From the NCBI GenBank assembly GCA_044376085.1, contig JBILLN010000017.1:3186-67185 (forward strand): a stretch of 64,000 bases of DNA, written 5' to 3'. The notes beneath the pieces are model-generated. The model saw only the letters and a program-made list of their open reading frames with translations, had not been told where the DNA came from and ran no database searches. This DNA comes from Bradymonadia bacterium (GTDB lineage Bacteria; Myxococcota_A; Bradymonadia; UBA7976; UBA1532). A program made the translations under genes and the position numbers. Below, one piece after another: positions 23,008-54,065 of this stretch (within the stretch, counting starts at the first letter, position 1; each line of letters begins with the position of its first letter).

Positions 23008-23061
23008 TAGGGCCCCGTCGGACCCGTAAGGGCGGCGGGAGGGTAAGGAGCCTGTCCGCCC

Positions 23062-28200: not shown

Positions 28201-28528
28201 CACCGTGCTCGCGACGGCGGGCACGGCCTTGGTGCTCGAGGCGGCCGGCGTCGCCTGCGCGCGGATCGCCAAGGAGTACGAACCGGCTCCGAACACGATT
28301 ACGGCACTGTCCGAGCGCTCGATCCATCTGGTATTTACGACGGTGCGTCACAAGCAAGGCATCCGCCGGTCCCAAGGGCTGCGACGGGCGGCCCTGCGCA
28401 ACGGCGTGCCCTATTTCACGACGCTGGCGGGGGCGCGGGCCGCGGTGGCAGCCCTCGTTCGACTGGCGGGCACCGGCCCCCTCGAGGTCCGGTCGCTGCA
28501 AGCGCTCCACGGCGCCCCGTCGCCCTGA
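25250..28528 (+). CDS. carB: Carbamoyl-phosphate synthase large subunit.
   Basis: The N-terminus is [37 protein letters not shown]. Both ATP-grasp halves are duplicated. The C-terminal MGS-like domain is present. Length is 1092 aa. Confidence 0.95.
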
Positions 28529-28546
28529 AACCGAGACGAACCGACG

Positions 28547-29023
28547 ATGTCCGAACGCCTCCCCATGACCCGTGCCGGGTTCGAGACGCTGCGCGAGCGG
28601 CTCAACCGCCTCAAGACGACGGACCGCCGCGAGGTCGCGCGCGAAATCGAGATTGCTCGGGGCCACGGTGACCTGCGCGAGAACGCCGACTACGACGCGG
28701 CAAAGAACAAACAGGGCATGATCGAGGCCAACATCCGCGATCTGGAGGACAAACTCGCCCGCGCCGAGGTCATCGACGTTGCCACGTTGTCGGGTGAACG
28801 CGTGGTCTTCGGCGCGACGGTGACGATCTCGGATACGAAGGACGGCGCCGAGCAGACGGTGCAGATCGTCGGCGAGGTCGAAGCCGACACCAAGAACGGG
28901 CGCATCTCCGTGACGTCGCCGCTGGCGCGGGCGCTGGTCGGCAAGAGTGTCGGAGACACGGTCAAGGCGCAGACGCCCGGCGGCGTGCGCGAGCTCGAAA
29001 TCATCGACGTTGTCTTCCGGTGA
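28547..29023 (+). CDS. greA: Transcription elongation factor GreA.
   Basis: It has the N-terminal coiled coil with the REIEIARGHGDLRENADYDAAK acidic tip and the C-terminal FKBP-like domain. Length is 158 aa. Confidence 0.9.
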   Translation: MSERLPMTRAGFETLRERLNRLKTTDRREVAREIEIARGHGDLRENADYDAAKNKQGMIEANIRDLEDKLARAEVIDVATLSGERVVFGATVTISDTKDGAEQTVQIVGEVEADTKNGRISVTSPLARALVGKSVGDTVKAQTPGGVRELEIIDVVFR

Positions 29024-29111
29024 ACCGAGCCCGCGGCCGCGGGCGCTGAGCCCGGCCGCGCGGGAGGCGTTCGCGGCCCTCGCACGGGTCGCAGGCAAGC
29101 TCGGCGCGACC

Positions 29112-31646: not shown

Positions 31647-31677
31647 TCCCGGACGGTGCCCGAGCGGGGCGGAAGAC

Positions 31678-32982
31678 CTACCGGTCTCCGAGGCGCTCGA
31701 GGCGCTCCAGATTGCGACGCAGCACGTCGGATCCCGGCCGTTGCCGAAGCGCTTCCGTGAAGTGCCGACGCGCGCACGGCAGGTCGCCGGCCTCGGCGCA
31801 GGTCGCGCCGAGATTCTGGTGGGCCACGAAGCTGTCCGGATCCGCCTGAAGTTCGGCCGTCCAGAGCGTCGACTCCGTCTGCCAGTCTGCGGCGCGGAGC
31901 GGCGTGAGCGCCAGACCGAGCAGGGGCGGGAGGGCCAGACCGAGGCGGGCGGGCGGGCGCAGGCGGTCCCAGAGCGCCGCGACGACGAGGCCGAGGCCAA
32001 CCAGCGGCACGTACAGGTACCGCGGCGCGACGAGGGTGCTGATGGGCACCAGATGCAGCACGGGGAGGAGCGTCCCGAGCGCGAGGAGCGTCCCCCAACG
32101 AGCGACGCCTCGTCCGCGCCACACGAGAGCGGCGCCGCCCACGAGCAGGACGATGCCGACGATCGTGTCGAAACCGAAGTGCGGGAGGTCCGGCAGCGCG
32201 TAGACCGCCCGGAGATCGATCGGCAGGACCGCCAGAGCGGCGTAGAACGCCGTCAGGTTCGGCACGGCGACCGGACGGTCGGCCGGGTCCACCAGGCGAA
32301 GGGCGGGGCCCTCGACGTCCGCCAGCAGGCGGCCGGCGATCACGGCCACGGCGACGGCACCCAGGGCGAGTCCGACCGTGCGCCGGTGCCGACCCGGCGC
32401 CGCCAGCAGACAGAGCGCCGGCAGGGCACCGAGGGCGACCTCCTTCGAACCGAGCGCCAGGCAGAAGGCCAGGAGGGCACCCAGCGAACCCCATCGCGTC
32501 CCCGCGACGACCCCGTGGGCGGCCAACAGGCAGAAGAACGCCGCGAACAGGTCGGTCCGCCCGGAGATGAAGTCGACCGCCTCCGTCAGGGCCGGATGCA
32601 GACCGAACGTGGCCGCTCCCAGCGCGGCGGCCACGGTGGACAGGCCAAGGCGTCGCCCGAGCCCGAAAACGAGCGCCACGTTTGCCAGATGCACGAGCAG
32701 ATTGGTCAGGCGGAACGCGAGCGGCGCCCCTTCGGTCAGCTGCCAGGTGACGGCATTGACCAGCACGGGCAGCGGCCGGAGGTACCCTCCGCCGGGCGCC
32801 GAGAGGGTCGCGGGAAAGAAGTCCGAGAGCGCCTCGGGCAGCGCGGTGTCGACGCGGTGCGCCGTCGGGCGGTCCCGGAGAAGAATGAGGTCGTCCCAGA
32901 CGAAACCGCCCCCCAGCGAGGGGACGTGCACGAGGGCGCACACGAAGAGGAGGCCGAAGAGGAGGCGGTGGGCGAGGGTCAA
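31678..32982 (-). CDS. Polytopic membrane protein with C-terminal TPR repeats (GT-C/PMT-like membrane domain plus TPR; TMTC-like architecture).
   Basis: It has about 11 hydrophobic helices and the N-terminal loop GGGFVWDDLILLRD. The C-terminal TPR region is HQNLGATCAEAGDLPCARRHFTEALRQRPG. It lies immediately downstream (68 nt) of metalloprotease gene 1. Confidence 0.6.
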   Translation of the reverse strand: MTLAHRLLFGLLFVCALVHVPSLGGGFVWDDLILLRDRPTAHRVDTALPEALSDFFPATLSAPGGGYLRPLPVLVNAVTWQLTEGAPLAFRLTNLLVHLANVALVFGLGRRLGLSTVAAALGAATFGLHPALTEAVDFISGRTDLFAAFFCLLAAHGVVAGTRWGSLGALLAFCLALGSKEVALGALPALCLLAAPGRHRRTVGLALGAVAVAVIAGRLLADVEGPALRLVDPADRPVAVPNLTAFYAALAVLPIDLRAVYALPDLPHFGFDTIVGIVLLVGGAALVWRGRGVARWGTLLALGTLLPVLHLVPISTLVAPRYLYVPLVGLGLVVAALWDRLRPPARLGLALPPLLGLALTPLRAADWQTESTLWTAELQADPDSFVAHQNLGATCAEAGDLPCARRHFTEALRQRPGSDVLRRNLERLERLGDR

Positions 32983-33051
32983 GAGCGGGCCTGGGGCGGC
33001 CCGGGCCGCGGGTGAGGGGGAGCCGCGGGGGAGGGGGCGGGGCGCCGGCGG

Positions 33052-36000
33052 TCAGTCGTCGTAGGGTTCGCTGACGCGGCGGAACATGCGGAACTGGCTG
33101 ATGAGGTCGCTGAAGTGACCGAGCTGGGCCCGGCGCTGCTCGAGCTCGGTCAGCGCGGCGGGCTCCGTCGGGTTCTGCTCCTCGAGCGCCGCGAGGGCGG
33201 CGGCCTGCTCGTTGAAGTAGGTCAGCAGCGACACGCTGATGGACTCGCCGTCGACGACCTGGGGCGCCACGTACGTCACCCGGGTGATCGGGTCGAGGTA
33301 CTTGACGACGGGCGTGTCTTCGGGGAGCTCCCGCGCCTCACCGGACCCCTCTTCGAAGAGCATGATGTAGTCGCGGAAGTCGGTCTCGCCGTCGAAGGAC
33401 GAGGAGTTGTAGACGGCCGACAGACCGAGCGTGCGCCAGAGCAGGGCAGGGGGCACCTGAGCGTCGATGCGCAAGGGCATTTCGGTGGGCGACGCCGCCT
33501 CGGCGGGCGCGCCGGGGTCGGCCTCGAAGCCCCAGGTCTGCGGATCGACCAGGTTTTCGGCCGTGACCCGGCCCTCGTCGTCCACGACCAGGCCGGTGTG
33601 GCTCAGGGTGCCGATGCCGAGGTAGGAGAACAGCATGTCCTTGGCCATCTTCACGAGCTCGGGGCGGAACAGCCGGTAGTAGTTGATGGAGAACCGCCGG
33701 CTGTCACCGAAGTCCGTGACGTTGAAGAAGTTCGTCGAGTCGTCGAGCAGGAACTGGAGGAACGCCGACTTGTCGAAGAACGTCCCGATGTAGTCGATGT
33801 TGTAGAGGTACTGGTCGTCGTACCGGAGGAACTGGTCACGCCCGAGGCCCTCGGGCACGTCCACGTACTGCTCACAGGTCTGTCCGGTCTCCGGCAGGAA
33901 GACCCCGCGGGTCGCGTCGAGGCAGTGCCGACCGGGGACCGGCGTGCCCATCACGCGCGAGATGAAGTTCAGGGACTCGAGCGCGGCCTTCAGGTAGTCG
34001 CGGCCGATCGCGGAGGTCTGGTTGCCGTAGACGTAGTACCGGACAGCGTAGGTCAGGTCGTCGATGAGGCCGGCCTGCCGCCCCATGAACCCGTTGACGA
34101 ACCCGCTCTCCATCCGCCCGCGCCGGAAGTTGTTGAAGAAGTAGTAGTTCCAGTAGCGGCTGATCGAGTTGTGGACGACCTCGTGGTTGCTCGAGCCCTG
34201 GTCGAACATCTTGCAGCGGGACCGGAAGAGATACGCGTGCTCGCAGTACGCATAGGGCACCTCCCGGGCAGTATGGAAGGTGACGTCCGGATCGCTGATC
34301 GAGTCGATGATCGCGGCTGTATTGGCCTGGATGCCGGCCGAACGCTCGCGGACGACCTCGTGCACGTCGGCGTCCTTGCGGGCCTTGAGGGCGTCGAGGT
34401 CGTCGTTGAGGAGCGACGGCACGGCGTCGGCGCCGTAGACGTAGGCGACGTAGAGGCCGAAGCCCGGGATGACCGGGAGCTTCACGCTGTCCTCGAAGAC
34501 CTCGATCTTGCGCGCATAGGCAGCCTTCATGGCGGCGTGGTCGTACTTGCCGAGGCCCTTGGTGTCGCTGTTGAAGCGCCCGTGGTAGTCCATGATGGTC
34601 GAGTAGGTGTACTCGGGGACGCGAGCCTCCGCGCGGTCGTCGATACCGTTGTCGTCGTTGTCCCCCGGGGCGATCTCGGCGACCTTCTTCCAGTACTCGT
34701 CCTGGTAGTTCAGCGCGTCGACGGAGCCCTCGAAGTTGTGCGTGAGGCCCATCGTGTGGCCGATCTCGTGCAGCGTCACCCCGCGGTAGATCTCGCGGCG
34801 GAGAATCTGGAAGAGCTCCTCGGGATCCCGGTCCTTGAGCTCGAGGGCCAGGCCGATCACCGCGTCGTCCATCATCTCGAAGGTGTCGATGCGGTGGTTG
34901 CCGAGCCAGGCATTGCGCTTTTCCATGCGCTCCGCGTAGGCACGCAGATCGGTCGCTGCCTCGGTGGCGGCCTGCTTCAGGGCCGGGCTGGGGCGATCGG
35001 CGGGCTCGCCGGCGTTGAAGACCGGGGCCAGGAGCTGCTGGAGCTCGTTCGGCACCATCATCGCCGCGAAGTCCGGATCCTCCATGGCCCGGGCGAGGCG
35101 GGCCTGACCTTCGCTCTGGACGGCCCGCTCGAGGGTGGCCGGTTTCGCCAGGGCGCGGACCGCCTTGAACTCGTCGCCCATCGCGCGCGGATCGACGCGT
35201 TTGCCGGGCTGCACCGCCGAGGGGACGAGCCCCATCTGGTTGCGGGCCTTCTGGCGGCGGGCCTCCGCTTTGGCGACGGTCGCAGCGGACAGGCCCTGAG
35301 TGGCCGTCTCCGTCCCGCGGCTGCGCTCCAGCCAATCGGAGACGTTCTTGCCCTGGAGGAGGTCGGCGAGGGCCAGGTCGCCGTTGATGGCGCGGACGGT
35401 ATCGACGGCGTTGCGGGCGTAGTTGTCGAGGGCGGCGCCGTAAATGTTCGCGTTGGCGCTGATGATGCGGCCGTTCTCACCATCCGTGCCCGAGGGACCG
35501 TACCCGAGGGGGCCGTCGGGCTGCTGCTCGTTGACCCAGTTCAAGAAGCTGAACCGGACGTCCCCGACCTTCTGGTACTGGAAGTAGTCGGCCTCGCCGG
35601 CGTCGAGGGTGGCGCGCTTGAGGGCCGCGCAGACGCGGTGCAGGTTGCCGGGGACGAGGACCTTCCGGAGGCGGGCGACCGCCGTGGCGTCGAAGTCCGT
35701 CGGTTCGTCGCCGGACAGGATGTGGGTCTGCGGCTTCGTTTCGTCGGCGACGAGGGCCGCCTCGACGTGGGGGTAGAACGCGGGGTGCTCGGTGAGGTAG
35801 TCGACCACGCCCCGGACGCCGCAGGTGTTCTCCCGAATCTGGTACATCCCCCGATGCTGGAGTTCGTCGCCTTCGATGAAGTAGTGGCGGCCGGGCTGGG
35901 CCTTGCTGTAGGCCTCGATCTCCGAGCGGAGGGCGGCATCGTCCCGACCGGTCCCGGCCCGGACGGCGTCCATCATGGCCGCGTCCCAATCCTGCGCGAT

Positions 36001-37578
36001 GCGGACCGTCTCGGCCTTGAGGTCTTCGGGGAAGTCGATGTTCAGGTAGTAGACGATGGGCCGCGGCTTCCGGTCGGCCATCGGGATGGCCTTGGGCTGA
36101 CCGTCGGTGCCGGCGACGCGGACGGGCTTCCCCTCGGCGTCGAGCACGATGGTGGGCTGGCCGTCTTCGCCGGGCTCGGTCTCGAACTCGTAGGCCGTCT
36201 GCCAGATGGGGTGGATGTTGACGAAGTACTGGCGCTGCTCGTCGCGACCCGCGCCGGTCTGGCGGTCGTATCCGGGGCGCTCCGTGCGGAAGAAGCCATG
36301 GCGCTCGAACTGCTGGAAGCTCGAGTCGTCGCAGTCGCGCTCGGTGTAGTACCCGGGGGCGAAGTAGTTATCGAGCGCCGTGAAGAGGTCCGGATTGCAG
36401 GCCACCTCGGCGAAGGGCACGGAGCACTCGCCGGGGCGCCCGGCCTGCGCGTCGTCGAACGTGCGGATGCAGGCTTCGTTCTCGGTGCACTCCGAGTCGG
36501 CGAGGCAGTTCGGCTGGCAGAGACCATCGCGGCAGGCGTTGCCGAAGCTGCACGCCGTCGAATCCGTGCAGCCGCGGCACAGGCCCTCGACGCACGTCAG
36601 CCCGTCCGAGCAGTTGGCGTCCGACGCGCACTGGCAGTTGGCGTCGACGCAGACGCAGAGGCCCTCCTGACACTCGAGGCCGTCCGGGCAGGCCGTCCGC
36701 TCGTCGCAGCTCCGGGACGGATCGTTGCTGCCGAACCGCTTGAGCGGGACGGGCAGGAACATCGTCTTCAGCGGCTTGCCATCGTCGTCGGTGTGCAGCA
36801 GCAGGTCGTCGTACTGGGTCGGCTCGAAGCGGGCCGACTCGACGTGGTCGATCTGCCAGAACGAGTGGCGAAGCCGAACGTCGGAGGAGGCGCAGCCCCA
36901 CTCGCCGTAGAGATAGCCGCACGTGAAGTCGTCGCCGACGATCCGCCGTGTGGTCATTTCGATGTAGCCGGGCTCGATGACCGGCTGGTGGGGCGAGAAG
37001 CGGTACTCGGTGTCGAGGTCCAGGCGAACGACACCGCCGACGACGGAGTTCACGAAGTTCAGGAACTCCCCGAAGTCCGCGGCACCGCCGACCGCGGTGT
37101 CGACCCTGATCCGGAAGTACTCGCGCTCGTCCCAGGGACGGTCCGAACTGTTCTCGCCGATGACGTTCGACTGCTCGCCGGTCGCCGAGTTGTAGCTGCG
37201 CTTGATGTCGAAGTGGCTGACGACGTCGAACATCGCAACGGGGTCGCCCTTGTAGTCGGACCCGGGCAGCGTGCGGTCTTCGTCGATGCCTGGCACGCCT
37301 TCGTGCGTGCGGTAGGCGATGAGTTTGTCCTCGCGGATCTCCCAGCGAATCTTCTCGATGTCCGCCTCGAGGCCGACGAACGCGCCCGAGAGGCCGGTGC
37401 CCGGATCGGACTCGACGATGGTCTGCCGGTAGTACCACTCCTTCTCGAAGAGGGACTTGGACAGATAGCCGGGCTGAACGGTGTTGATGTCCCCGACGGG
37501 CTCCGCACAGGCGGCCGCCAGGAAGCTCACGGCGAGGGCGGCGAGGCCGCGGGTCGTGCGATTGAGATGAGCGATCAT
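33052..37578 (-). CDS. Giant metzincin-type zinc-metalloprotease lipoprotein (about 1508 aa) with an inserted myxobacterial cysteine-rich repeat module.
   Basis: The signal peptide with lipobox is MIAHLNRTTRGLAALAVSFLAAAC, with GAGGGAG upstream. The zinc site is HEIGHTMGLTHNF (HExxHxxGxxH), and the Met-turn is STIMDY. The Cys-rich insert is CDERTACPDGLECQEGLCVCVDANCQCASDANC... The start was set inside the 1701-aa ORF. Confidence 0.7.
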   Translation of the reverse strand: MIAHLNRTTRGLAALAVSFLAAACAEPVGDINTVQPGYLSKSLFEKEWYYRQTIVESDPGTGLSGAFVGLEADIEKIRWEIREDKLIAYRTHEGVPGIDEDRTLPGSDYKGDPVAMFDVVSHFDIKRSYNSATGEQSNVIGENSSDRPWDEREYFRIRVDTAVGGAADFGEFLNFVNSVVGGVVRLDLDTEYRFSPHQPVIEPGYIEMTTRRIVGDDFTCGYLYGEWGCASSDVRLRHSFWQIDHVESARFEPTQYDDLLLHTDDDGKPLKTMFLPVPLKRFGSNDPSRSCDERTACPDGLECQEGLCVCVDANCQCASDANCSDGLTCVEGLCRGCTDSTACSFGNACRDGLCQPNCLADSECTENEACIRTFDDAQAGRPGECSVPFAEVACNPDLFTALDNYFAPGYYTERDCDDSSFQQFERHGFFRTERPGYDRQTGAGRDEQRQYFVNIHPIWQTAYEFETEPGEDGQPTIVLDAEGKPVRVAGTDGQPKAIPMADRKPRPIVYYLNIDFPEDLKAETVRIAQDWDAAMMDAVRAGTGRDDAALRSEIEAYSKAQPGRHYFIEGDELQHRGMYQIRENTCGVRGVVDYLTEHPAFYPHVEAALVADETKPQTHILSGDEPTDFDATAVARLRKVLVPGNLHRVCAALKRATLDAGEADYFQYQKVGDVRFSFLNWVNEQQPDGPLGYGPSGTDGENGRIISANANIYGAALDNYARNAVDTVRAINGDLALADLLQGKNVSDWLERSRGTETATQGLSAATVAKAEARRQKARNQMGLVPSAVQPGKRVDPRAMGDEFKAVRALAKPATLERAVQSEGQARLARAMEDPDFAAMMVPNELQQLLAPVFNAGEPADRPSPALKQAATEAATDLRAYAERMEKRNAWLGNHRIDTFEMMDDAVIGLALELKDRDPEELFQILRREIYRGVTLHEIGHTMGLTHNFEGSVDALNYQDEYWKKVAEIAPGDNDDNGIDDRAEARVPEYTYSTIMDYHGRFNSDTKGLGKYDHAAMKAAYARKIEVFEDSVKLPVIPGFGLYVAYVYGADAVPSLLNDDLDALKARKDADVHEVVRERSAGIQANTAAIIDSISDPDVTFHTAREVPYAYCEHAYLFRSRCKMFDQGSSNHEVVHNSISRYWNYYFFNNFRRGRMESGFVNGFMGRQAGLIDDLTYAVRYYVYGNQTSAIGRDYLKAALESLNFISRVMGTPVPGRHCLDATRGVFLPETGQTCEQYVDVPEGLGRDQFLRYDDQYLYNIDYIGTFFDKSAFLQFLLDDSTNFFNVTDFGDSRRFSINYYRLFRPELVKMAKDMLFSYLGIGTLSHTGLVVDDEGRVTAENLVDPQTWGFEADPGAPAEAASPTEMPLRIDAQVPPALLWRTLGLSAVYNSSSFDGETDFRDYIMLFEEGSGEARELPEDTPVVKYLDPITRVTYVAPQVVDGESISVSLLTYFNEQAAALAALEEQNPTEPAALTELEQRRAQLGHFSDLISQFRMFRRVSEPYDD

Positions 37579-37592
37579 TGGTCGGGTCTCCC

Positions 37593-40500
37593 TCACTTCC
37601 CGAGGTCCATGACGGAGCGCAGGAGGCGCATGTCGTCGATGGTGCTGAGGTAGAACTCGAGGGTCTGGTCGGCGTTCTCGAGGTCGTTCTCGCGTTGCGG
37701 ATTCTCCGGATCGGCGTCGAAGGCGCGCTTGGCGGCGTTCCAGTCTTCGGCGGCCTGCTTGGCGACGCGGAGGAGTCGGTAGGCGACGGAGAGCCCGTCG
37801 CGGGTCTGCGGGGCCTGGAAGATCTGGCCGGTCTTGGGGTTCTCGAACGTCGCGACCAGCGCCCCGTCCGCGATGGCCCGATCGTCGCCCGAGCCCTTCT
37901 CCTGCACGGCGATGTACTCGTAGAAGTCGAGCTTGGTATCCCCGGGGCGCGAGTTGAGCTGGGTCCCGGCGAACAGCCAGTACCGCATGAGGTCGAAGGG
38001 CGTGTTCGTCCAGATCTGCACGGGCTCGATCTCGTCGCCGTTCTCGTCGACCGGCGCCTCGGAGTGGCCGGGCAGGCGGCCGTCGACGGTGGAGAAGTCG
38101 AACATCGTGGGGAAGGTGTGCACCGCCTCGCCCTTCTCGTTCTTCGTCGTCGACCACTGGAACGCCCGGTGTCCGAAGTTGCCGAGGCCGGCGTCGAGGA
38201 GGTCGAGCGTCAGGTCGAGCAGGCGGTCCTTGAAGACGTCGTAGAACCCGAAGCGGAGGTCGATCTCGCCCGCGGCGTTGACCGGCGGGCGGATGAAGAC
38301 GTTGCCGGCGTTCAGGAGCGGGATGATGAAGTTCTGCTTCTCGAAGAACGAGCCCATGTACTCGTACTTGGTCTGATAGTCGTCCGAGAGGTCGATGTAC
38401 ATGTCGCGGCCGACGCCCAGGGGGAGTTCCATCCGGTCACAGGCCTCGCTGCGGAAGTAGTCCGGGTTGAACCCGAAGGCCCAGTACGGGACGTAAGTGA
38501 TCTGCTCCTTGAGGGAGTTGCCCGTATTGGCCTTGCAGTACCAGCCCGGCTCGGGCGCGCCGACGACCTGCATCGTGAAGTCGGTGGCGATCATGGCGGC
38601 GCGCAGGAGGTCCTCGGTCAGGTCCATCGGGGTGCCGTCGCGATTCACGTACTGCTGGAAGAACGAGTAGTGCTTGTAGGGGTAGTTCAGGTAGGGCAGC
38701 AGGCGGCCCATGCGGCTGAAGAACCCGAGATAGAACTGGTACTCGTCCCGACCGCGGCGCCAGGAGTTGAAGAAGTAGTAGTTCCAGTAGCGCTGGATGG
38801 CCGAGCGGACGGCTTCTTCGTGGGTGGGGCCCTCGTCCCAGGTGCGGCACTTGGGGTCGCGACCGTTGAAGTAGTCGAAGCAGTAGAAGTACGGCACCGT
38901 CCGGTCGCGCCAGTAGCCCTCCGCGCCGGCGTCCGGGCTCTCCGCGAAGCGCTTGCCGTTCTCGCGGATGCCTTCGCGCGCCTCGGCGATGACCTCGTCG
39001 ACGAGACGGTCCTCGCGGCGGGTCAGGTTTGCGGTGCTGCCGCCGAGAAGCTGCGGGATCTTGGTGTAGTGGTCGTACTCGAGGTGGAGATCCAGCCGGC
39101 TGGGGACCTCCACGCTCTCGTCGAAGGCCTCGATGAGCCCCGTGTACGCGAACTTGATGGCGGCCTGGTCGTACTTGCCGAGGCCGTGGAAGTCCGAGTT
39201 GAAGCGGGCGCCGTAGTCCATGATCGAGGTGTAGCGGTACTCGGGCTGAAGGTGCTCGTCGCGCTCCTCGTCCGTGTCGTAGCGCTCCTCGAGGTCCCAG
39301 AACGTGTCGAAGTAGTTCAGCGCGTCGTGCGAGGCCCGGAAGTTGTGGGTCATGCCCAGCGTGTGGCCGATCTCGTGGAGCATCACGCCGCGGAAGATCT
39401 CCTTGCGGAGGTCCTCGTAGACCTCGACCGGGTCCCGCCCCTTGAGGCTGAGCGCCCGGCCGATGACCGCGTCGTCGTAGAACTCGGGCAGGGTGATGTT
39501 GCGCTCGATGTAGAAGTCGGCGCGCTTCTGCATGTGTTCCGAGATGGCGGCGGGGTTGGCGGCGACCTCGATGGTGGCCTCGAGGAGGTCCTCCGGCATG
39601 TCCTCGCCCTCGTGGGCGTTGGGGTCCCACTGGAACAGGCGGTAGAGCATCGACATCACGGGGCGGGGGAGCATGCGGGTGCGGAGCTCCGGGTTGTCCC
39701 GCAGGCGCTGCTTCATGAGGTCCATCGGATCGGGTCCGGCGGCCTGGGCGAACATGGGGTCGTCCGCCCGCTTCAACTCCGACCGCGTGACCATGTCGTG
39801 GGACATGCGGCTCAGGTCGACCTTGCCGTCGGCCGAGCGGAAGCTCTCGGGGTTGGCGGCCTGGAACGTCGAGAAACGCTGCTTCAACGCGGCGCGCTGG
39901 GCCTCCGTGACGGTGAGGGGCTGGTCGGCCACGCTCTTGTTCCGAAGGTCGAGCCAGTCGGTGATCGTCTTGCCCGAGGCGATGTCCTCGAAGGCGTCGT
40001 CGATGTCACCATTGAGGAAGCGGACGAGGTCCATCGAGTCCCGGGCGTAGCCGTCGACCGCCGCGCCGTACACGTAGGCGTTGCCGCTGATGATGCGGCC
40101 CGTCTCGGCGTCGGGGCCGGAGGGGCCGAAGCCGAGGGGACCGGAGGGCTGGTCTTCGTTGACCCAGTAGACGAAGTTCCAGCGAACGTCACCGACCTGC
40201 TGGTAGGTGAACTTCTCGAGGCCGCGGGCGCGGCTCTCGGCCGTCAGCGCGGAGCAGACGGGCTCGAGGTTGCCGGCGAGGATGTTGTTGGGGTTGCCGG
40301 CATCCACCGCGTCGCTGTCGAGGTCGTCGGCGTGCGTCACCGAACGGACGACGTCGACGAGTTCGGGGACGCGCTCGAGATAGGCGTCGATGACCTCGCG
40401 GCGGCAGTCGTTGTCGTCGATGCGGTAGGCCGCGCCGTGACCGGTCTGCTTCTTCAGCTCGGCGCGCAGGGCCTCGGGCGACTTGCCCTGAGCCGAGGCG

Positions 40501-41792
40501 ATGGCATTGACGAAGAGGCGGTCCCAGTCGGCGGCGATCTCCTGGGCGGTGCCCTTGAGGTCCTCGGGGAAGTTCACGTTCAGGTGGTAGACGATGGGCC
40601 GCACCTTGCGGTCCTTGACCGGGATGACCACCGGATTCCCGTCGGCATCCCGCTTCAGTTTGGGCTTGCCGGCCTCGTCACGGGCAATGACCGGCGCGCC
40701 CGTCTCGTCCTCGGTCATCTCCCACGCGTAGACCTGTTCCCAGATCTTGTGGTGGTTGGCGTAGAAGTTGCGCAGCTCGTCGTGCCCGTTGGGGAGCCGG
40801 CGGTTGGCGTCGTAGCGCTCCGTGCGGAAGAACCCGAAACGACCCATCTGGTTGTGGGTCAGCGGCTTGCAGTCCTCTCGGCGGTACTTGCCGCGGAGCT
40901 GCTCGAGCACGTCGTCGGTGCACTCGACGTCGACGTAGTCGACCCCGCCGTCCGGCTTGGGGACCGAGACGGTCAGCGAGTACATGATGGCCCCGTTCTC
41001 GTCGCGGACGAACTCGCGGTCGAGGTAGGAGCGCGGCTCGAACTGCGCGGCGTCCTCGGGGTCGATGCGCACGAAGCTGTGGCGCACCTTGACCTCGCCG
41101 AGACCGCAGGAGTTCCGGGTGTTCGTGGACGTCCGGTAGAAACCGTACTCGATGAAGCAGGTGTAGCCGCCGTCGGTGACGGTGTACGACGTCGTGAACG
41201 AGATCGTCCCGTCCTCCAGATCCGCCTGGAAGTGGTCCGGATTGGCGATCTCCGTCTCACGGGCCCAGTAGGTGCCCGTCGAGAACGTCGCGAACAGCTT
41301 GGCGAAGTCCTGACCGACCGCCGCCGCCGACGACCAGTCCGCCCGGAAGAAGTCGCGCTCGAACCAGGGACGCAGCGAGCTGTCCTCGTTCAGGACGTTG
41401 CTCTGGGTGCCGTTGGCGCTGTTGTAGTCGCGCACGATGTCGAAGTGTTCGACGCCGCTGACGCGCAGGATGGTGTCGCCCTCGAACGTGGCGCCGGGCC
41501 GCGTCTCGTCCTCGTCGAGGCCGCGGATGCCCTCGTGCGTCCGGCGGGCGTGCAGCGCATCGCCGTAGAACTCGAACTTGACCTTCTCGACCTTGCCCTC
41601 GAGGCCGACGAAGCCGATGCCGACGTCCGGCGGGACGTCGACGATCGTCTGGCGGTAGTACCACTCGCCATCGAGCATCGCCTTCTTGAAGTAGTGCGGT
41701 TGGACCCGGTTGACGTCCTTCACCTCTTCCGCACACGACGGCAGAAGAGAGATGAGCGCGGGTACGACGGCGGCCTGCCAGAAACGTCGCAT
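37593..41792 (-). CDS. Giant metzincin-type zinc-metalloprotease lipoprotein (1399 aa), a paralog of the downstream gene.
   Basis: The signal peptide is MRRFWQAAVVPALISLLPSC (lipobox). The zinc site is HEIGHTLGMTHNF, and the Met-turn is TSIMDY. It is colinear with gene 1 over most of its length (EWYYRQTIV, QSNV, FFRTER, LGFGPSGPD, RYWNYYFFN). Confidence 0.7.
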   Translation of the reverse strand: MRRFWQAAVVPALISLLPSCAEEVKDVNRVQPHYFKKAMLDGEWYYRQTIVDVPPDVGIGFVGLEGKVEKVKFEFYGDALHARRTHEGIRGLDEDETRPGATFEGDTILRVSGVEHFDIVRDYNSANGTQSNVLNEDSSLRPWFERDFFRADWSSAAAVGQDFAKLFATFSTGTYWARETEIANPDHFQADLEDGTISFTTSYTVTDGGYTCFIEYGFYRTSTNTRNSCGLGEVKVRHSFVRIDPEDAAQFEPRSYLDREFVRDENGAIMYSLTVSVPKPDGGVDYVDVECTDDVLEQLRGKYRREDCKPLTHNQMGRFGFFRTERYDANRRLPNGHDELRNFYANHHKIWEQVYAWEMTEDETGAPVIARDEAGKPKLKRDADGNPVVIPVKDRKVRPIVYHLNVNFPEDLKGTAQEIAADWDRLFVNAIASAQGKSPEALRAELKKQTGHGAAYRIDDNDCRREVIDAYLERVPELVDVVRSVTHADDLDSDAVDAGNPNNILAGNLEPVCSALTAESRARGLEKFTYQQVGDVRWNFVYWVNEDQPSGPLGFGPSGPDAETGRIISGNAYVYGAAVDGYARDSMDLVRFLNGDIDDAFEDIASGKTITDWLDLRNKSVADQPLTVTEAQRAALKQRFSTFQAANPESFRSADGKVDLSRMSHDMVTRSELKRADDPMFAQAAGPDPMDLMKQRLRDNPELRTRMLPRPVMSMLYRLFQWDPNAHEGEDMPEDLLEATIEVAANPAAISEHMQKRADFYIERNITLPEFYDDAVIGRALSLKGRDPVEVYEDLRKEIFRGVMLHEIGHTLGMTHNFRASHDALNYFDTFWDLEERYDTDEERDEHLQPEYRYTSIMDYGARFNSDFHGLGKYDQAAIKFAYTGLIEAFDESVEVPSRLDLHLEYDHYTKIPQLLGGSTANLTRREDRLVDEVIAEAREGIRENGKRFAESPDAGAEGYWRDRTVPYFYCFDYFNGRDPKCRTWDEGPTHEEAVRSAIQRYWNYYFFNSWRRGRDEYQFYLGFFSRMGRLLPYLNYPYKHYSFFQQYVNRDGTPMDLTEDLLRAAMIATDFTMQVVGAPEPGWYCKANTGNSLKEQITYVPYWAFGFNPDYFRSEACDRMELPLGVGRDMYIDLSDDYQTKYEYMGSFFEKQNFIIPLLNAGNVFIRPPVNAAGEIDLRFGFYDVFKDRLLDLTLDLLDAGLGNFGHRAFQWSTTKNEKGEAVHTFPTMFDFSTVDGRLPGHSEAPVDENGDEIEPVQIWTNTPFDLMRYWLFAGTQLNSRPGDTKLDFYEYIAVQEKGSGDDRAIADGALVATFENPKTGQIFQAPQTRDGLSVAYRLLRVAKQAAEDWNAAKRAFDADPENPQRENDLENADQTLEFYLSTIDDMRLLRSVMDLGK

Positions 41793-41907
41793 TCTTCACA
41801 CCTCGTGGGTTGGCATTCGAGCGGCCCCCCGTTTGGGACCCGCGCCACCCCCCCTGCATGCCGAAGCGTGCATGGATTGACGCGAATCAAGGGCCGGGGG
41901 CGACGTA

Positions 41908-41924
41908 GGCAACTCCCGTGCCGC
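41908..41924 (-). promoter_or_regulatory. Sigma-54 (-24/-12) promoter upstream of metalloprotease gene 2.
   Basis: The minus-strand sequence is GCGGCACGGGAGTTGCC, i.e. GGCACG-N4-TTGC with canonical GG/GC spacing. It lies about 115 nt upstream of the ATG at 41792. An A-tract is immediately upstream and two G8 tracts lie further upstream. Confidence 0.5.
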
Positions 41925-42014
41925 TTTTTTGGCAAGCGAAAACGCGCGGTCGGGGGGGGCGGTCCGGTCGGAGCGGCGCCGGGGGGGGCGAACGTGAAGA
42001 AACGAACGGCGGGT

Positions 42015-43028
42015 TCAGGTCTCGGGGACGGGGTCGGCAGCGGGTCCGCCGCTGAGGGCGGGATCGGGATCGCGGCTGGGGGCGCGGCGACCGTTCGGGC
42101 GGTGGCGGGCGAAGTACCAGGCCGCCGAGCAGGCGGTCTTGACCGTGTCGGCCACGCCCATGCCCTCCAGGTTGGGCCAGAACAGATTGCACTCGCCGCA
42201 GGGTTCGATCTCCTTGCGGCGACCCGTGCGGTGGTACTCGCGGTACTTCGAGGCGGTATTGCCCCGGTACACCTCGAGCACGGACTGCTCGCGCACGTTG
42301 CCCCAGGTGTACTCGCCCTCGTGGTCCTGGCAGCAGAGCGTGACCTTGCCGTCGCTCAGGATGTCGAGGCGGGTGATGTGTTCGCAGCCGTAACTCGGGA
42401 CGGGGAACGCGGAAGGGATGTCGCCCTTGTAGTTGAACTGCCCGACGATGAAGGGCTGCACCCCCATGCTTTCGCAGTAGTCCGAGAAGGCGTCCTGCTC
42501 TTCCAGCGTGGTGTCTTCCATCCGGACCATGCGGAACTGGATCTTGGGGGCGACCTTGCTGCGCCGGACGGGGTCGACCAGGTACTTCATGTTGTCGAGC
42601 GTGCGCTCGAGCTTGAAGCCCATGATGTTCTTGTACCGGACGGGATCGAGGGTGTTCAGGCTGATGGTCAGGCGGTCGACGCCCCCGATGGAGACGAGCT
42701 CGTCGATGCGCTTCGGCACGAGGCCGTAGCCGTTCGAATACAGGCCGAGGCGGGTCTTCGGCAGGCGACTGCGGATGTGCTGGAGCCGACCGATGATGCG
42801 GGGGTCGACGAAGGGCTCGCCGTTGAGGAACGGTTCGATCTCTTCGAGCGGGAAGGCCCGGCAGTCCTCGACGATCTTCTCGAAGAGGTCCTGGTCCATG
42901 TGGAACTTGTCGCGAGCCTTGAAGTTGTACGGGCAGAACGGGCAGGCGGCGTTGCAGCGGCTGGTCGTCTCGATGGAGACCATGCGCGGGTACTCACCGC
43001 CATCCATGACGCGTTGACGGAAGATCAT
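42015..43028 (-). CDS. Radical SAM enzyme with a SPASM/twitch-like C-terminal Cys-rich region.
   Basis: The radical SAM box is SIETTSRCNAACPFCPY (Cx3Cx2C). The C-terminal Cys residues are LCCQDHEG ... CGECNLFWPN. The composition (rich in K, N, Y, F) is atypical for this window. The start is at MIFRQRVMDGG, with GAGGA 7 nt upstream. Confidence 0.75.
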   Translation of the reverse strand: MIFRQRVMDGGEYPRMVSIETTSRCNAACPFCPYNFKARDKFHMDQDLFEKIVEDCRAFPLEEIEPFLNGEPFVDPRIIGRLQHIRSRLPKTRLGLYSNGYGLVPKRIDELVSIGGVDRLTISLNTLDPVRYKNIMGFKLERTLDNMKYLVDPVRRSKVAPKIQFRMVRMEDTTLEEQDAFSDYCESMGVQPFIVGQFNYKGDIPSAFPVPSYGCEHITRLDILSDGKVTLCCQDHEGEYTWGNVREQSVLEVYRGNTASKYREYHRTGRRKEIEPCGECNLFWPNLEGMGVADTVKTACSAAWYFARHRPNGRRAPSRDPDPALSGGPAADPVPET

Positions 43029-43071
43029 GTGGACGTCCTCGCGGAGAGTGAGATGAATCGAGGGCCGTCGA

Positions 43072-43086
43072 GCAAGATGCGTGCCC
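43072..43086 (-). promoter_or_regulatory. Sigma-54 (-24/-12) promoter upstream of the radical SAM gene.
   Basis: The minus-strand sequence is GGGCACGCATCTTGCT, i.e. GGCACG-N4-TTGC. It lies about 45 nt upstream of the ATG at 43028, within the 157-nt gap after the GT4 gene. Confidence 0.5.
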
Positions 43087-43185
43087 GGGACCCGAGGTTG
43101 CGGGTCGTCGTTTCCGGAGTACGCCTGCTCCAGATCGACCTCCCCCTGGCGCACGGATACCGCAGGTCGACGCGGGTATGCGAGG

Positions 43186-44361
43186 TCAACGCCGCGCGGC
43201 CAGCCGCTCCTCGTAGAAGGCCCGCAGGCGCTCGCCCCGCGCGTCCCAGGTCAGCGAGGCCGCCAGCGTCCGGGCGCCCCGGGCGAGACGTGCCCGGAGG
43301 TCCGGGGCCTCGAGCAGGCCGCGCAGGGCGCTCACCAGAGCGGGGACGTCGTCGGGGTTCACGAGGCGCGCGTTCTCGCCGTCGCGCAGAAGCTCCGTCG
43401 TATCGGGCAGGTCCCCGGCCAGCACGGCGCGGCCGGCCGCCAGATAGGTGAAGAGCTTCAGGGGCATGACCGTCGTCCCCTCCTCGGTGAGGGGGCGGCG
43501 GCTGGGCGGAACGAGCAGCACGTCGGCCGCCAGGTGGGCCTGCTCGAGGCGCTCACCCGTGAGAAATCCGAGGAAACGCACGTTCTCGAGGCCCTGGGCA
43601 GCGGCTTTCATCTCGCGCGCGTCGTCGGTCCCGTCGTGGCCGACGAAAACGAAGCGGACGTCCGGCATCCGGCGGGCGGCGTCGATGAAGAGGTCGCAGG
43701 CTTTGGCGCGCCCGAGCCGGCCCGCGTACACGGCGGTGGGCCCCTCGGAAAGTCCGAGGGCGGCGCGCGCCGAGGCGGGGTCGCGGTCCGTCGCGAGGAG
43801 TCGGGCATCGAACCCGTTGTACAGCGTGACGACCTTCTCCGGGGGCACGCCGTCTCGAACGAACTGCTCCCGGACGAGTCGGGAGTGGACGATCAGCCCG
43901 GCGAAGGCGCGCAGCGGCGTCAGGTGGCGAAAGACCGGGCGCACGGCGGGGAACTGGGCCGTCAGCGGGCGATAGGTCTCGAAGAAGAGCGGTCGTCGCG
44001 CGCCCAGCATCGCCAGGGACGGCAGGAGCGTGCGGGTGTGGACGAGGTCGTAGGGGCGTCGCAACGCCGAGCCCGTGGCCAGCGCGCCGCCGGCGAGCTT
44101 CGTCAGCAGGCGCGGGCCGCTCAGCGCGCCCGGAACGGGGCAGAGTCGAAACTCGCAGCCCGTGGCGTAGTGGGCCCTCAGGGCGTCGTGGAGCGCCGCC
44201 CGGGCGGAGGCGTCCCGGACCGCCGCGGCGTTCGGCGCAACGGGGAAGTACAGGTCGACGGCCACGCCCGTGCGGCCGAGCGCCGACAGGGCGTTGACGA
44301 ACTGAATCGTGTCCGCCCCGTGGCCGGGCAGGACTTCGTCGGTCAGAAAGGCGATGCGCAT
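43186..44361 (-). CDS. GT4-family glycosyltransferase (GT-B fold).
   Basis: The N-terminal domain is MRIAFLTDEVLPGHGADT. The C-terminal nucleotide-sugar domain is EEGTTVMPLKLFTYLAAGRAVLAGDLPD (an EX7E-like region). The start was set at MRIAFL inside the longer ORF. Confidence 0.7.
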   Translation of the reverse strand: MRIAFLTDEVLPGHGADTIQFVNALSALGRTGVAVDLYFPVAPNAAAVRDASARAALHDALRAHYATGCEFRLCPVPGALSGPRLLTKLAGGALATGSALRRPYDLVHTRTLLPSLAMLGARRPLFFETYRPLTAQFPAVRPVFRHLTPLRAFAGLIVHSRLVREQFVRDGVPPEKVVTLYNGFDARLLATDRDPASARAALGLSEGPTAVYAGRLGRAKACDLFIDAARRMPDVRFVFVGHDGTDDAREMKAAAQGLENVRFLGFLTGERLEQAHLAADVLLVPPSRRPLTEEGTTVMPLKLFTYLAAGRAVLAGDLPDTTELLRDGENARLVNPDDVPALVSALRGLLEAPDLRARLARGARTLAASLTWDARGERLRAFYEERLAARR

Positions 44362-44396
44362 GGCGCGGCGCGCATGCGACGATCGTGCCAGCGACG

Positions 44397-45374
44397 TCAG
44401 GGGATGTCGGACGCCAGCCACGCCGCGAGGGGCGCGAAAACCGCCCGCTCGGCGGGCTCGCTGATGAAGAGGTCCGCGTGAGCCATCGGCGTCGCGGCGT
44501 CGCCGGCGACGACCACGCGCCGGGCGTGCGCCGGTGCACCGATGGTCTCGTCCCCCGTGCGAACGACCGCCTCGGGAACGATGCCGTCGGCGTTGGCGAC
44601 GATCGTGAGGAGGGGGTGCGCGACCCGGGCGAGATCGGTGGTCAGGTTTCGCCGATCGAGCACGAGGTCCCGCTGGCGGATCCAGCGGGCGATCTCGAAG
44701 TTGATGCGCGCGACGGGGTCGTCGACGGTGTTCACCAGGCTTTCGGGTCGGCTGAGGTCACAGATGCGCGGGTTCAGGTAGAGGTCGAGCGCGCCGGGCA
44801 CGCGGGCGATGGCGGGCAATGCCAGCCGCGCCAGGGTGCGGGTGCCGCGCATGGCGGGCAACCCGAGGGGAAGCTGTGCCAGCGCCCGCACCAGCGGATG
44901 CGCCGTCGTCCAGGAGAGGGGGCCGCCCAGATTCACGAGGCGGCGGAGGGGCGCGTCGGGACGCCACGCCGCCTGCATGAAGACGTAGGTCGCGCCGAGG
45001 CTGCATCCGATGGCGTCCACCGGGCCGGGCGGCAGCGCGCTGTGGCGGGGGACCGCGTCGAGGACCGCCCCCAGATCCACGACGCCCACGTCCGCGAGGC
45101 CGAACCCCCTGCGCCGGCCGCGACCGGGGATGGGGTGTGCGTGACCCTGCCCGCGCAATTCGACGCAAAAGACCTCGAACCCGCGGTCTGCCAGGTATGC
45201 GGCCAAGGGTCGACCCGTGGGGTGGTACCCCAGGATGTACGCGTTCATGGCGAAGCCCGGCACGATGACCACGGGGCGGCGGTGCAGGTCGAGGCGCTGC
45301 GGATCGCGATAGCGGTGCAGGGCGAGGCGCCAGCCAGCCCCGTTCTCGGTGAAGTAGGTCCGTCGTTCGAGCAT
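44397..45374 (-). CDS. Alpha/beta-hydrolase fold protein (esterase/lipase/thioesterase-like).
   Basis: An HG-type oxyanion region is VVIVPGFAMN. The nucleophile elbow is GCSLGA (GxSxG). C-terminal Asp/His candidates are present. The start was set at MLERRTYF inside the 763-aa ORF. Confidence 0.65.
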   Translation of the reverse strand: MLERRTYFTENGAGWRLALHRYRDPQRLDLHRRPVVIVPGFAMNAYILGYHPTGRPLAAYLADRGFEVFCVELRGQGHAHPIPGRGRRRGFGLADVGVVDLGAVLDAVPRHSALPPGPVDAIGCSLGATYVFMQAAWRPDAPLRRLVNLGGPLSWTTAHPLVRALAQLPLGLPAMRGTRTLARLALPAIARVPGALDLYLNPRICDLSRPESLVNTVDDPVARINFEIARWIRQRDLVLDRRNLTTDLARVAHPLLTIVANADGIVPEAVVRTGDETIGAPAHARRVVVAGDAATPMAHADLFISEPAERAVFAPLAAWLASDIP

Positions 45375-45527
45375 GGACCGCAGTCTGACGAACCGGGGTC
45401 GTCGTGTCACGGCTCGCGCGCGGCCGGCGCCTGCGGTGGCCACCCGAAGGCCACCCGGGGCGCCAGTTCGAGGCGTCCGGACCCACCCGCGCCCTCGCTT
45501 TCGGCGAGCGAAGGGCCCCGGACGCCC

Positions 45528-45542
45528 GGCCCGAGGTTTGCA
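45528..45542 (+). promoter_or_regulatory. Candidate sigma-54 promoter upstream of the ACP gene (one mismatch in the -24 box).
   Basis: CGGCCCGAGGTTTGCAA is GGCCCG-N4-TTGCA. The GG-to-GC spacing is correct and TTGCA is a perfect -12 box. GGAGG is 5 nt before the ATG at 45573. Confidence 0.25.
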
Positions 45543-45572
45543 ACCCGGGTGAGCGACGCCCCGGAGGCGGAC

Positions 45573-45866
45573 ATGGACGACCTGATGCGCGTGCCGATCT
45601 TCCAGCGCCTGAAGCACATCCTGGTGACCGACTTCGCCAAGGACGAGGCCCTCGTGACGCCGTCCGCGACGTTGCGCGGGACGCTGATGATGGACAGCCT
45701 CGACCTCGTCGATCTCGTGTTCTTCCTCCAGCGGGAGTTCCACCTCGAGGCCCGGCTCGAGGACCTTCGCGACGTGAAGTCGCTCGACGCGCTCGTGACC
45801 TACATCGCCCGCAGCGCCGGCTCGGCGACGAGCCCGGCGACGACGCCGGCAGCCGCCGCGGGCTGA
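45573..45866 (+). CDS. Acyl/peptidyl carrier protein.
   Basis: It is a 97-aa acidic protein with the phosphopantetheine attachment motif LMMDSLDLVDLVFFLQ (DSL). GGAGG is 5 nt upstream of the ATG. Confidence 0.7.
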   Translation: MDDLMRVPIFQRLKHILVTDFAKDEALVTPSATLRGTLMMDSLDLVDLVFFLQREFHLEARLEDLRDVKSLDALVTYIARSAGSATSPATTPAAAAG

Positions 45867-46001
45867 GGCGGACCCGGCGCCGGGGCCAAGGAGCCGCGTC
45901 GGCCGTTGCCCGTCGGGCTGGCTCCGGCGTACCATGCTCCCCGACGCCGGGGCGGACCCGGCCAGGCTTCTCTCCACGGACCCCGGACGGTTCCCCAAGG
46001 C

Positions 46002-53287: not shown

Positions 53288-53956
53288 TCAGAACGAGCTG
53301 CGCAGACCCAGGCTGACCGGCACGGTATTGAGGTTCAGCGTGGCATCGTCGCCATAGGTCGTGGTCGTGTAGTAGCCCACGGCCGTGAAGGCGGCGACGC
53401 TGTCGTTGAACTTCCAGCCCGCGCCGAAGTTGAACCGCAGGCTCCAGCCGAAGCGCGTGTCGCGCGTCGGGTCGCCCTTCACCGCTTTGTCGTTGCCCAC
53501 CCAGATCGTCGGCCCCAGACCGAGCAGGCCGTCGAACGAGAGCCCCTGCCAGATGGGGAACGTCATGCGGGCCCGCAGGTGGGGGCTCATGATGAGGCTG
53601 CGTTCGTCGGGCGCGCCCTTCTCGTCGGAGCCGGCCCAGACGAACATGTACTCGCCGCCGATGCCGAAGTTCCGGCCGAGCATCTTGTCGAAGCCGGGGA
53701 CGATGCCGAGCGTGGCCTTGCCGTCGGACTCGACGACGTCACCCCCGTCGGGCTCGGCCTCGAACGTCGACCCGAGGCCGAGCAGGAACTCGAGGGACGC
53801 GGCCAGTTTCGGTGCGGCCTCGGCGGATTCGCTCTTGGGCTCGTCGGCCTCCCCCTTGCCCTTGGCAAGGGCGGACTGCGGGGCGGCGAGCGCCGTCCAC
53901 GCGGCGAACGAGAGAGCGAAGACGGCGGGGGATTTTCGGGCAGTGATCGGGCTCAT
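53288..53956 (-). CDS. Outer-membrane beta-barrel protein (OmpA-like/porin-like small barrel).
   Basis: The signal peptide is MSPITARKSPAVFALSFAAWTALAAPQSALA. Alternating hydrophobic beta-strands end in a terminal LGLRSSF (C-terminal Phe). AGGAG is 6 nt upstream of the chosen ATG. Confidence 0.55.
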   Translation of the reverse strand: MSPITARKSPAVFALSFAAWTALAAPQSALAKGKGEADEPKSESAEAAPKLAASLEFLLGLGSTFEAEPDGGDVVESDGKATLGIVPGFDKMLGRNFGIGGEYMFVWAGSDEKGAPDERSLIMSPHLRARMTFPIWQGLSFDGLLGLGPTIWVGNDKAVKGDPTRDTRFGWSLRFNFGAGWKFNDSVAAFTAVGYYTTTTYGDDATLNLNTVPVSLGLRSSF

Positions 53957-54065
53957 GAAGACTCCTGGCATGCGGCGCGCGTTTTAACAGCCCGGGGGTG
54001 GCGCGTGCAATCGCCGGGGCCGTGCTTACCTTGCCCTCGTCCACCCAACGACGAGAGAGTCGCCG

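Follow-up and report, generated by a model that had tools for sequence, protein, structure and literature searches.

A co-directional protease, glycosyltransferase and radical SAM gene run in a Bradymonadia genome is probably a patchwork of separately gained genes in a conserved backbone

Here we examine a 64,000-nucleotide stretch of DNA from a Bradymonadia bacterium (GenBank assembly GCA_044376085.1, contig JBILLN010000017.1, positions 3,186 to 67,185 of the forward strand), referred to below as the window, and within it a run of six co-directional minus-strand genes that spans positions 31678-45374 and is bordered by a divergently transcribed carrier-protein gene. An earlier note, made from the sequence alone, had suggested that these seven genes could be a single system that produces and decorates two secreted proteases. 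Taken in the order of transcription, the six genes are separated by gaps of 35, 157, 222, 14 and 69 nt, and the locus comprises the following features:

44397-45374, minus strand: alpha/beta-hydrolase, 325 aa (Pfam, translation, public gene call)
43186-44361, minus strand: family 4 glycosyltransferase (GT4), 391 aa (Pfam)
42015-43028, minus strand: radical SAM protein (rSAM) with a BtrN-like auxiliary Fe-S domain, 337 aa (Pfam, profile)
37593-41792, minus strand: met1, a putative lipoprotein of the PF16313/DUF4953 family with an HExxHxxGxxH zinc site, 1399 aa (Pfam)
33052-37578, minus strand: met2, a paralogue of met1 and putative lipoprotein, with a Cys-rich insert, 1508 aa (Pfam)
31678-32982, minus strand: polytopic membrane protein of the glycosyltransferase C fold (GT-C; TMTC/PMT_2/ArnT-like) with a short C-terminal TPR, 434 aa
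45573-45866, plus strand: stand-alone acyl/peptidyl carrier protein (ACP), 97 aa (PP-binding)

Because the G+C content of the window is about 70%, mechanical lists of open reading frames (ORFs) are full of spurious frames. Codon-position GC singled out one frame per segment and the translations agreed, while a public gene call made independently for the identical contig gave matching lengths of 325, 391, 337, 1399, 1508, 434 and 97 aa; public metagenome contigs also encode a protein 100% identical to met1. On all three counts the gene layout given in the earlier note, its five gaps and divergent ACP gene included, was exact. Its domain calls for the hydrolase, the GT4, the Radical_SAM plus SPASM protein, the met-zincins and the carrier protein were likewise borne out by Pfam matches above the gathering score, and its statement that no established system matches this gene set agreed with searches of Pfam, NCBIfam, PADLOC and the literature. 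NCBIfam placed no protein of the locus in a specific named family, and PADLOC returned no defence-system match, only generic kinase-domain and weak viperin-like rSAM matches.

The whole gene set, minus the GT-C gene, was found in just two other loci, L005 and L006, which are collinear with the window over the entire stretch compared, the flanking kinase and recG genes included. L005 belongs to Myxococcota bacterium MAG.78, the closest named genome, with approximately 85% nucleotide identity to the window. Together with the window these two loci are called the window clade below. The gene orders in this clade and in the more distant loci are given here with identities to the window in brackets; the metzincin pair of the latter is written metA, metB.

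Window clade: rightward carB, greA, recG; leftward (GT-C), met2, met1, rSAM, GT4, hydrolase; rightward ACP, kinase, kinase; leftward outer-membrane protein (OMP); rightward clpB
L164 (met1 56%): as the window clade, minus GT4, rSAM and GT-C
L085, L166 (metzincin 40-41%): rightward carB, greA, metA, metB, GT4; leftward hydrolase; then ACP-kinase (L085) or MscS (L166); no rSAM
L165/L169 (metzincin 43%): rightward carB, greA, metA, metB; two sulfatases, a 186-aa gene, MMPL; leftward hydrolase, MscS; rightward ACP, kinase, kinase
L172 (metzincin 40%): rightward lipA, a second GT4 (GT4'), carB, greA, metA, metB; unrelated genes; no GT4, hydrolase or ACP
L173 (hydrolase 54%, GT4 48%, ACP 51%): rightward lipA, carB, greA, GT4; leftward hydrolase, MscS; rightward ACP, kinase, kinase; leftward OMP; rightward clpB; no metzincin

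By tblastn, carB and greA are equally constant neighbours of the metzincin pair. The interval between greA and the hydrolase varies by lineage and can hold GT4, rSAM, GT-C, recG, sulfatase, MMPL or MscS genes. At greater distances, metzincin homologues of 24-29% identity and hydrolase homologues of 47-48% identity had none of the partners nearby, and a test for a conserved multi-gene system found no co-occurrence of components beyond general synteny in the related loci.

We consider it likely that the locus is not a dedicated system but an evolutionary patchwork, its genes gained and lost separately within a housekeeping backbone. In this uncultured Myxococcota lineage the backbone would run lipA-(GT4')-carB-greA and, after an interval, GT4, hydrolase, (MscS), ACP-kinase-kinase, OMP and clpB, with the space from greA to the hydrolase serving as a variable slot. 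The co-directional layout would have arisen from local rearrangement and from the gain of two gene-sized segments, with the two largest gaps on their flanks. Both gained genes appear from their distribution to be recent arrivals, the rSAM gene at this position being seen only in the window clade and the GT-C gene looking like an indel confined to this genome. Probable transcription units would be hydrolase-GT4, rSAM on its own, and met1-met2, perhaps extended into the GT-C gene. The backbone genes of the window lie as follows (Pfam; for lipA to recG also public gene calls and tblastn):

23047-24081, plus strand: lipA
24078-25202, plus strand: GT4', the second GT4
25250-28528, plus strand: carB
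28547-29023, plus strand: greA
29010-31646, plus strand: recG
46002-49715 and 49712-53269, plus strand: pair of Ser/Thr kinase-AAA_16-TPR (STAND) genes
53288-53983, minus strand: OMP beta-barrel
53988-56678, plus strand: clpB

The proposal of one system for making and decorating the proteases fares poorly in these comparisons, since the genes are co-localised only in the immediate clade of the window (L005, L006), where everything else is syntenic as well. The earlier note had suggested gene-neighbourhood conservation across Myxococcota as a check; further away the parts are separable in every combination, which is largely the outcome that it had named as evidence against itself. Its functional calls gene by gene stand, whereas the single protease-decorating system is not supported. 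The weaker alternative that it offered, a glycolipid or glycan pathway lying beside the proteases, is compatible with what we see for the GT4 and the rSAM (perhaps also for the hydrolase and ACP), and such a neighbouring glycan or glycolipid function for GT4 and rSAM is possible. Overall, the locus fits best as a set of new members from known enzyme superfamilies whose arrangement stems from synteny and gene gain at this site, and it amounts to no new system. The main value of the analysis is a false lead averted, in that a tidy co-directional run in a GC-rich myxobacterial genome resolves into backbone synteny plus two gene-sized gains. Three parts of it are each a reasonable target for envelope function in uncultured myxobacteria: an uncharacterised family of putative lipoprotein zinc peptidases of 1,400 aa that come in pairs, lack a solved structural relative and went unmentioned in the literature searched, a tightly conserved orphan BtrN-like Myxococcota rSAM whose recurrent neighbours are GT4 and MMPL genes, and a conserved unit of a carrier protein with two STAND kinases.

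Several points weigh against the patchwork explanation. The loci compared are metagenome-assembled fragments with flanks of at most 10 kb, and they speak to adjacency only and not to genome-wide co-occurrence. In four of five lineages (the window clade, L164, L085, L166 and L169) no more than a few kb separate the hydrolase from the metzincin pair, and in three (window clade, L085 and L166) the GT4 directly borders the pair and points the same way, even though the orientation of the pair relative to its flanks differs between these arrangements. The six genes of the window clade run in one direction, with no gap above 222 nt, so that a single transcript is possible, and selection for co-regulation could give the same pattern. 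The same adjacencies would also be expected if the metzincin pair, GT4 and hydrolase formed a cooperating core to which the window clade added an rSAM and a GT-C enzyme that elaborate its product further; GT4 and hydrolase could, for example, build or trim a glycan or glycolipid needed for anchoring, export or activity of the peptidases. The higher conservation of the GT4 and hydrolase orthologues (48-65% identity) than of the metzincins (40-56%) is a further point in favour of such a core. However, L173 retains GT4, hydrolase and ACP-kinases in the same backbone without any metzincin, L172 has the pair without GT4 or hydrolase, and L164 has it without GT4. The first two of these cases imply that neither set is an obligate partner of the other. 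Moreover, carB and greA neighbour the pair to the same degree, and because these are equally conserved neighbours, adjacency to the pair is explained by synteny. We regard a cooperating core as unlikely.

For the hydrolase, Pfam matched Abhydrolase_1 (46.9 bits) and Hydrolase_4, both above gathering score, and a Ser-Asp-His triad composed of the GxSxG serine Ser125, Asp263 and His299 is invariant in 18 homologues. Its orthologues in L164, L085, L166, L169 and L173 are 54-65% identical and lie by the ACP-kinase block (in L166 the next gene is MscS). The GT4 scored above threshold for the GT-B fold domains Glyco_trans_1_4, Glycos_transf_1 and Glyco_transf_4 and fell far below every specific NCBIfam cut-off, the best being the WcaI family at 79 bits against a required 276. 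L085, L166 and L173 have GT4 orthologues (48-53% identity), and in each the gene borders the hydrolase gene, irrespective of the presence of metzincins. The GT4 and hydrolase may carry out cytoplasmic steps towards a glycan or glycolipid of the envelope, and the substrate of the hydrolase may be an acyl-carrier thioester; since both genes persist where no metzincin exists, their job is independent of the metzincins.

The ACP matched PF00550 at 26.3 bits (cut-off 20.8) and has an MMDSLDL motif that contains the DSL serine. It scored below every NCBIfam AcpP cut-off, from which we conclude that it is not the housekeeping AcpP. The order of ACP followed by kinase is kept in L164, L085, L169 and L173, and the complete kinase pair follows the ACP in L164, L169 and L173. 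A carrier protein at the head of a kinase pair is unusual and unexplained. The two STAND kinase genes overlap by 4 nt, and the ACP stands ahead of the pair in at least four other lineages, whether metzincins are present or not.

The met1-met2 pair appears from sequence comparison to be an ancient tandem pair and the sole invariant unit of the locus. All full-length relative loci examined down to 37% identity had a tandem pair. Within the window met2 is 36% identical to met1, and the two paralogue lineages are recognisable among relatives down to 42-48% identity. Both proteins exceed the cut-off of 24.2 bits for the Pfam family PF16313 ('Met-zincin'), met1 with 39.5 and met2 with 27.0 bits. Homologues of met1 (n = 62, approximately 1,300-1,500 aa) all come from Myxococcota-type metagenomes, and all but a few match PF16313. 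The extended zinc motif reads HEIGHTLGMTHNF in met1 and HEIGHTMGLTHNF in met2, and in 21 sequences H806, E807, G809, H810, G813 and H816 are invariant, as is the wider pattern HEIGHTxGxxHNF. Approximately 40 residues past the third zinc His, M858 in the sequence SIMDY is invariant in the same number of homologues and is a candidate Met-turn. The signal peptides end in a lipobox, LISLLPSC before AEE in met1 and SFLAAAC before AEP in met2, and the lipobox Cys20 is invariant across the 21 homologues. The two proteins would be co-transcribed across their 14-nt gap, exported by the Sec route and lipidated at this Cys, and their function may be that of zinc peptidases in the envelope or at the surface, where they could work as a hetero-pair.

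In resembling the PF16313 and astacin-type metzincins, the two window proteins share the family match, the HExxHxxGxxH site and the Met some 40 residues downstream, and NCBI names PF16313 relatives 'zinc-dependent metalloprotease'. The astacin (M12A) model itself gave 20.1 and 16.3 bits, below its cut-off of 22.5, and astacins in the PDB gave E-values of 0.13-0.3. The catalytic domain of metzincins folds as a five-stranded sheet with three helices. A model of the C-terminal 760 aa of met1 (pLDDT 84.5) found no fold match in the PDB and was not superposable on the catalytic domains of solved metzincins. The label 'metzincin', as it had first been applied to these proteins, is therefore correct at the level of motifs but does not extend to a shared fold. 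Literature searches on DUF4953, PF16313 and DUF5117/5118 found nothing. A bolder reading would make the tandem PF16313 lipoproteins a structurally new zinc peptidase, with HExxHxxGxxH set in a mostly helical scaffold without a solved relative, recruited into a new operon with the GT4, the BtrN-like rSAM and the TMTC-like GT-C, in which an unusual glycan modified by the radical SAM enzyme is attached to the peptidases or to their lipid anchor; taken as one joint claim, this strikes us as quite improbable.

Between residues ~275 and 415 of met2 (window positions ~36334-36756) lies a Cys-rich insert with 19 Cys in 120 aa and repeated C..DG..C..G.C motifs. It is absent from met1 and has no Pfam match, and it is common to the met2 orthologues of L005, L006 and L164 and to metB of L165.

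The GT-C protein has no Pfam match of its own, PMT being reached only at an E-value of 0.25, while 18 of the 52 sampled homologues match PMT_2 (best 2.9e-12). Its AlphaFold model (pLDDT 93.9) returned ArnT, AglB, Pmt4, PglB, STT3, EmbA/B and Pmt1/2 as top Foldseek matches in the PDB, with TM-scores of 0.35-0.48 and a probability of mostly 1.00 (0.97 for EmbA). Across the 52 homologues D30 and D31 are invariant, and R69, P70, K180, E181 and R321 are invariant or nearly so. GT-C enzymes of the TMTC type have the corresponding motifs, DD in the first extracytoplasmic loop, RP, KE and an Arg, and those that bear TPRs in eukaryotes are protein O-mannosyltransferases (PMC7801869). The description of this protein as GT-C-like with a TPR thus holds for the fold, by model and by motif, and the C-terminal TPR amounts to two or three weak, sub-threshold repeats. 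Like the TMTC/PMT_2/ArnT enzymes, the protein joins a polytopic N-terminal domain to a C-terminal TPR and carries the DD/RP/KE/Arg motifs, and ArnT is its top structural match, as has been reported for the TMTCs. Unlike them, it is just 434 aa long, with two or three weak TPRs, no Pfam match of its own and TM-scores of 0.41-0.48, and its gene is a lineage-specific insertion.

In a nucleotide alignment, window positions 31643-33055 are without counterpart in the closest relatives, where the spacer between met2 and recG measures 177 nt (L005) and 54 nt (L006), and the L005 spacer contains no remnant of a GT-C gene. The gene belongs to a very large family of lipid-linked-sugar transferases, which at an E-value of 1e-3 or below counts 49,421 cluster representatives in all kinds of contexts. 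At the position of the GT-C gene, L005 has a 71-nt unit repeated 2.2 times (L005:20014-20170, 93% match) with internal GC-rich inverted repeats. The window does not contain this unit, which may be a REP/MITE-like element that marks an indel hot spot.

These findings bear directly on the full reading in which all seven genes serve to glycosylate or acylate both proteases, the GT-C/TPR protein being a periplasmic protein O-glycosyltransferase and GT4 with rSAM making its lipid-linked donor. It can draw on the TPR-bearing TMTC enzymes, which O-mannosylate proteins in eukaryotes (PMC7801869), on the position of the GT-C gene 69 nt downstream of met2, and on the fact that a modified sugar donor from a GT4 and an rSAM is possible in principle. 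Yet relatives at 85% nucleotide identity lack the GT-C gene and keep the rest, the GT-C family of more than 49,000 cluster representatives occurs in contexts of all kinds, the rSAM is never near metzincins outside the window clade (in flanks of up to 10 kb), and the parts are separable in every combination. We judge this full reading very improbable.

The rSAM protein was matched by Radical_SAM (PF04055, 58.4 bits) and SPASM (PF13186, 43 bits), both above threshold. The cysteines of its CxxxCxxC motif (C25, C29 and C32), together with C215, C232, C233, C277 and C280, are invariant in the family. A SPASM domain holds two auxiliary 4Fe-4S clusters on a seven-Cys motif, CX9-15GX4C ... CX2CX5CX3C ... 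C, and this pattern is incomplete in the rSAM, which is missing the CX5CX3C part. A profile of the rSAM family matched BtrN at 3e-21, both in the core and in the C-terminal auxiliary-cluster domain, the next match being YydG at 3.5e-9. BtrN is a 2-deoxy-scyllo-inosamine dehydrogenase, a radical SAM enzyme with a twitch auxiliary cluster that acts as a sugar/cyclitol dehydrogenase. The SPASM-like Cys region reported at first is hence present to the extent that PF13186 scores above threshold, but with approximately four to five conserved Cys it aligns with the single-cluster twitch domain of BtrN. The likeness to BtrN covers the CxxxCxxC core and the C-terminal Cys domain, where the Cys pattern of the rSAM fits one auxiliary cluster. 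The profile aligned in two local stretches only, so the rSAM is not an orthologue of BtrN, and where BtrN belongs to an aminoglycoside cluster, the rSAM family is found in a GT4/MMPL/polysaccharide context in Myxococcota.

The rSAM family is tightly conserved, with 213 proteins at an E-value of 1e-10 or below and those listed 55-72% identical. We scanned its loci with one genome per species (79 loci, flanks up to 10 kb) by tblastn with all window proteins. Identity to the window rSAM was 96% in L005 and 88% in L006; the approximately 52 other loci from Myxococcota (49-70% identity) gave no match to a metzincin, the hydrolase or the ACP within the flanks that could be searched (up to 10 kb), and a GT4 of the same broad subfamily (30-37%) was nearby in approximately 10 of them. 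Among 141 neighbour ORFs within 2.5 kb at 44 rSAM loci, which were called solely for counting Pfam families, only GT4 (11) and MMPL (9) recur. At two of the loci, L001 and L002, the rSAM gene lies in a polysaccharide cluster that also holds GT4s, Wzx, a deacetylase and epimerases, and L003 differs again. Clusters of this polysaccharide or glycolipid kind (GT4 with Wzx and deacetylase, or PimA-type GT4 with MMPL export) thus house some rSAM orthologues, whereas the window locus lacks a flippase, polymerase, deacetylase, sugar-nucleotide gene and MMPL, and GT4 is the sole shared component. Occasional neighbours (L001, L002, L007-L058) include CDP-alcohol phosphatidyltransferase, myo-inositol-1-phosphate synthase, LPG-synthase and polysaccharide deacetylase, and these annotations hint at a role in lipid headgroups or glycolipids. 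A literature search for rSAM, SPASM and glycosyltransferase in Myxococcota found nothing. Since BtrN is the nearest solved relative and GT4 and MMPL are the recurrent neighbours, a small molecule of the glycan or glycolipid kind is the best guess at the substrate; the rSAM most likely acts on a sugar-like small molecule and not on a protein, and it is plausible that its arrival beside a GT4 was not accidental.

Least probable of all is that the rSAM/SPASM protein is a peptide or protein maturase of the kind that modifies ribosomally synthesized and post-translationally modified peptides (RiPPs), with either a small precursor encoded in the adjoining gaps or the Cys-rich met2 insert as its substrate: SPASM-domain enzymes are often peptide maturases, the rSAM gene sits between the two largest gaps (157 and 222 nt), met2 offers 19 Cys in 120 aa and there are weak NCBIfam matches to peptide maturases, but all of these matches are far below their cut-offs, the small-molecule dehydrogenase BtrN is matched at 3e-21 against 3.5e-9 for YydG, the protein has neither an N-terminal extension nor a RiPP recognition element (RRE) domain, its core starting from residue ~15, at the orthologue loci gaps are tight, neighbours vary and no small gene is conserved, and the insert occurs in met2 orthologues of L164 and L165 without a nearby rSAM, which argues against it as the substrate. 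The 222-nt gap downstream of the rSAM gene was scanned (the 157-nt gap was not) and held no supported small ORF, and the idea of a RiPP precursor was dropped. A role like that of an anaerobic sulfatase-maturating enzyme (anSME), for which the two sulfatases in the L165 slot made the rSAM a candidate, was rejected as well, as no anSME model or structure was matched and the window has no sulfatase.

Of the remaining signals at the locus, the repeat search returned the met1/met2 paralogy alone; the rSAM and GT-C genes have no flanking direct or inverted repeats and hence no mobile-element signature. A scan of positions 31000-46500 for sigma-70 promoters and intrinsic terminators found sites no commoner than in shuffled sequence and none in the intergenic gaps, which makes it uninformative on operon boundaries, and an Rfam search gave no match in the locus at an E-value of 0.1 or below. 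Over the metzincin and rSAM genes (34001-44000) the G+C content falls to 0.66-0.69, compared with 0.72-0.74 in the flanks, while that of third codon positions rises to approximately 0.95. The dip probably comes from amino-acid composition (low G+C at second codon positions) and not from foreign origin. In the surrounding backbone, recG overlaps greA by 14 nt, and outside the window clade and L164 it is absent from the interval that separates greA from the metzincins; the OMP and clpB genes beyond the kinases also occur in L164 and L173. Homologues of GT4' (24078-25202) lie upstream of carB in L165, L166 and L172, and in L165 an IS200/IS605-type Y1 transposase gene (L165:1395-2342) is found between GT4' and carB.

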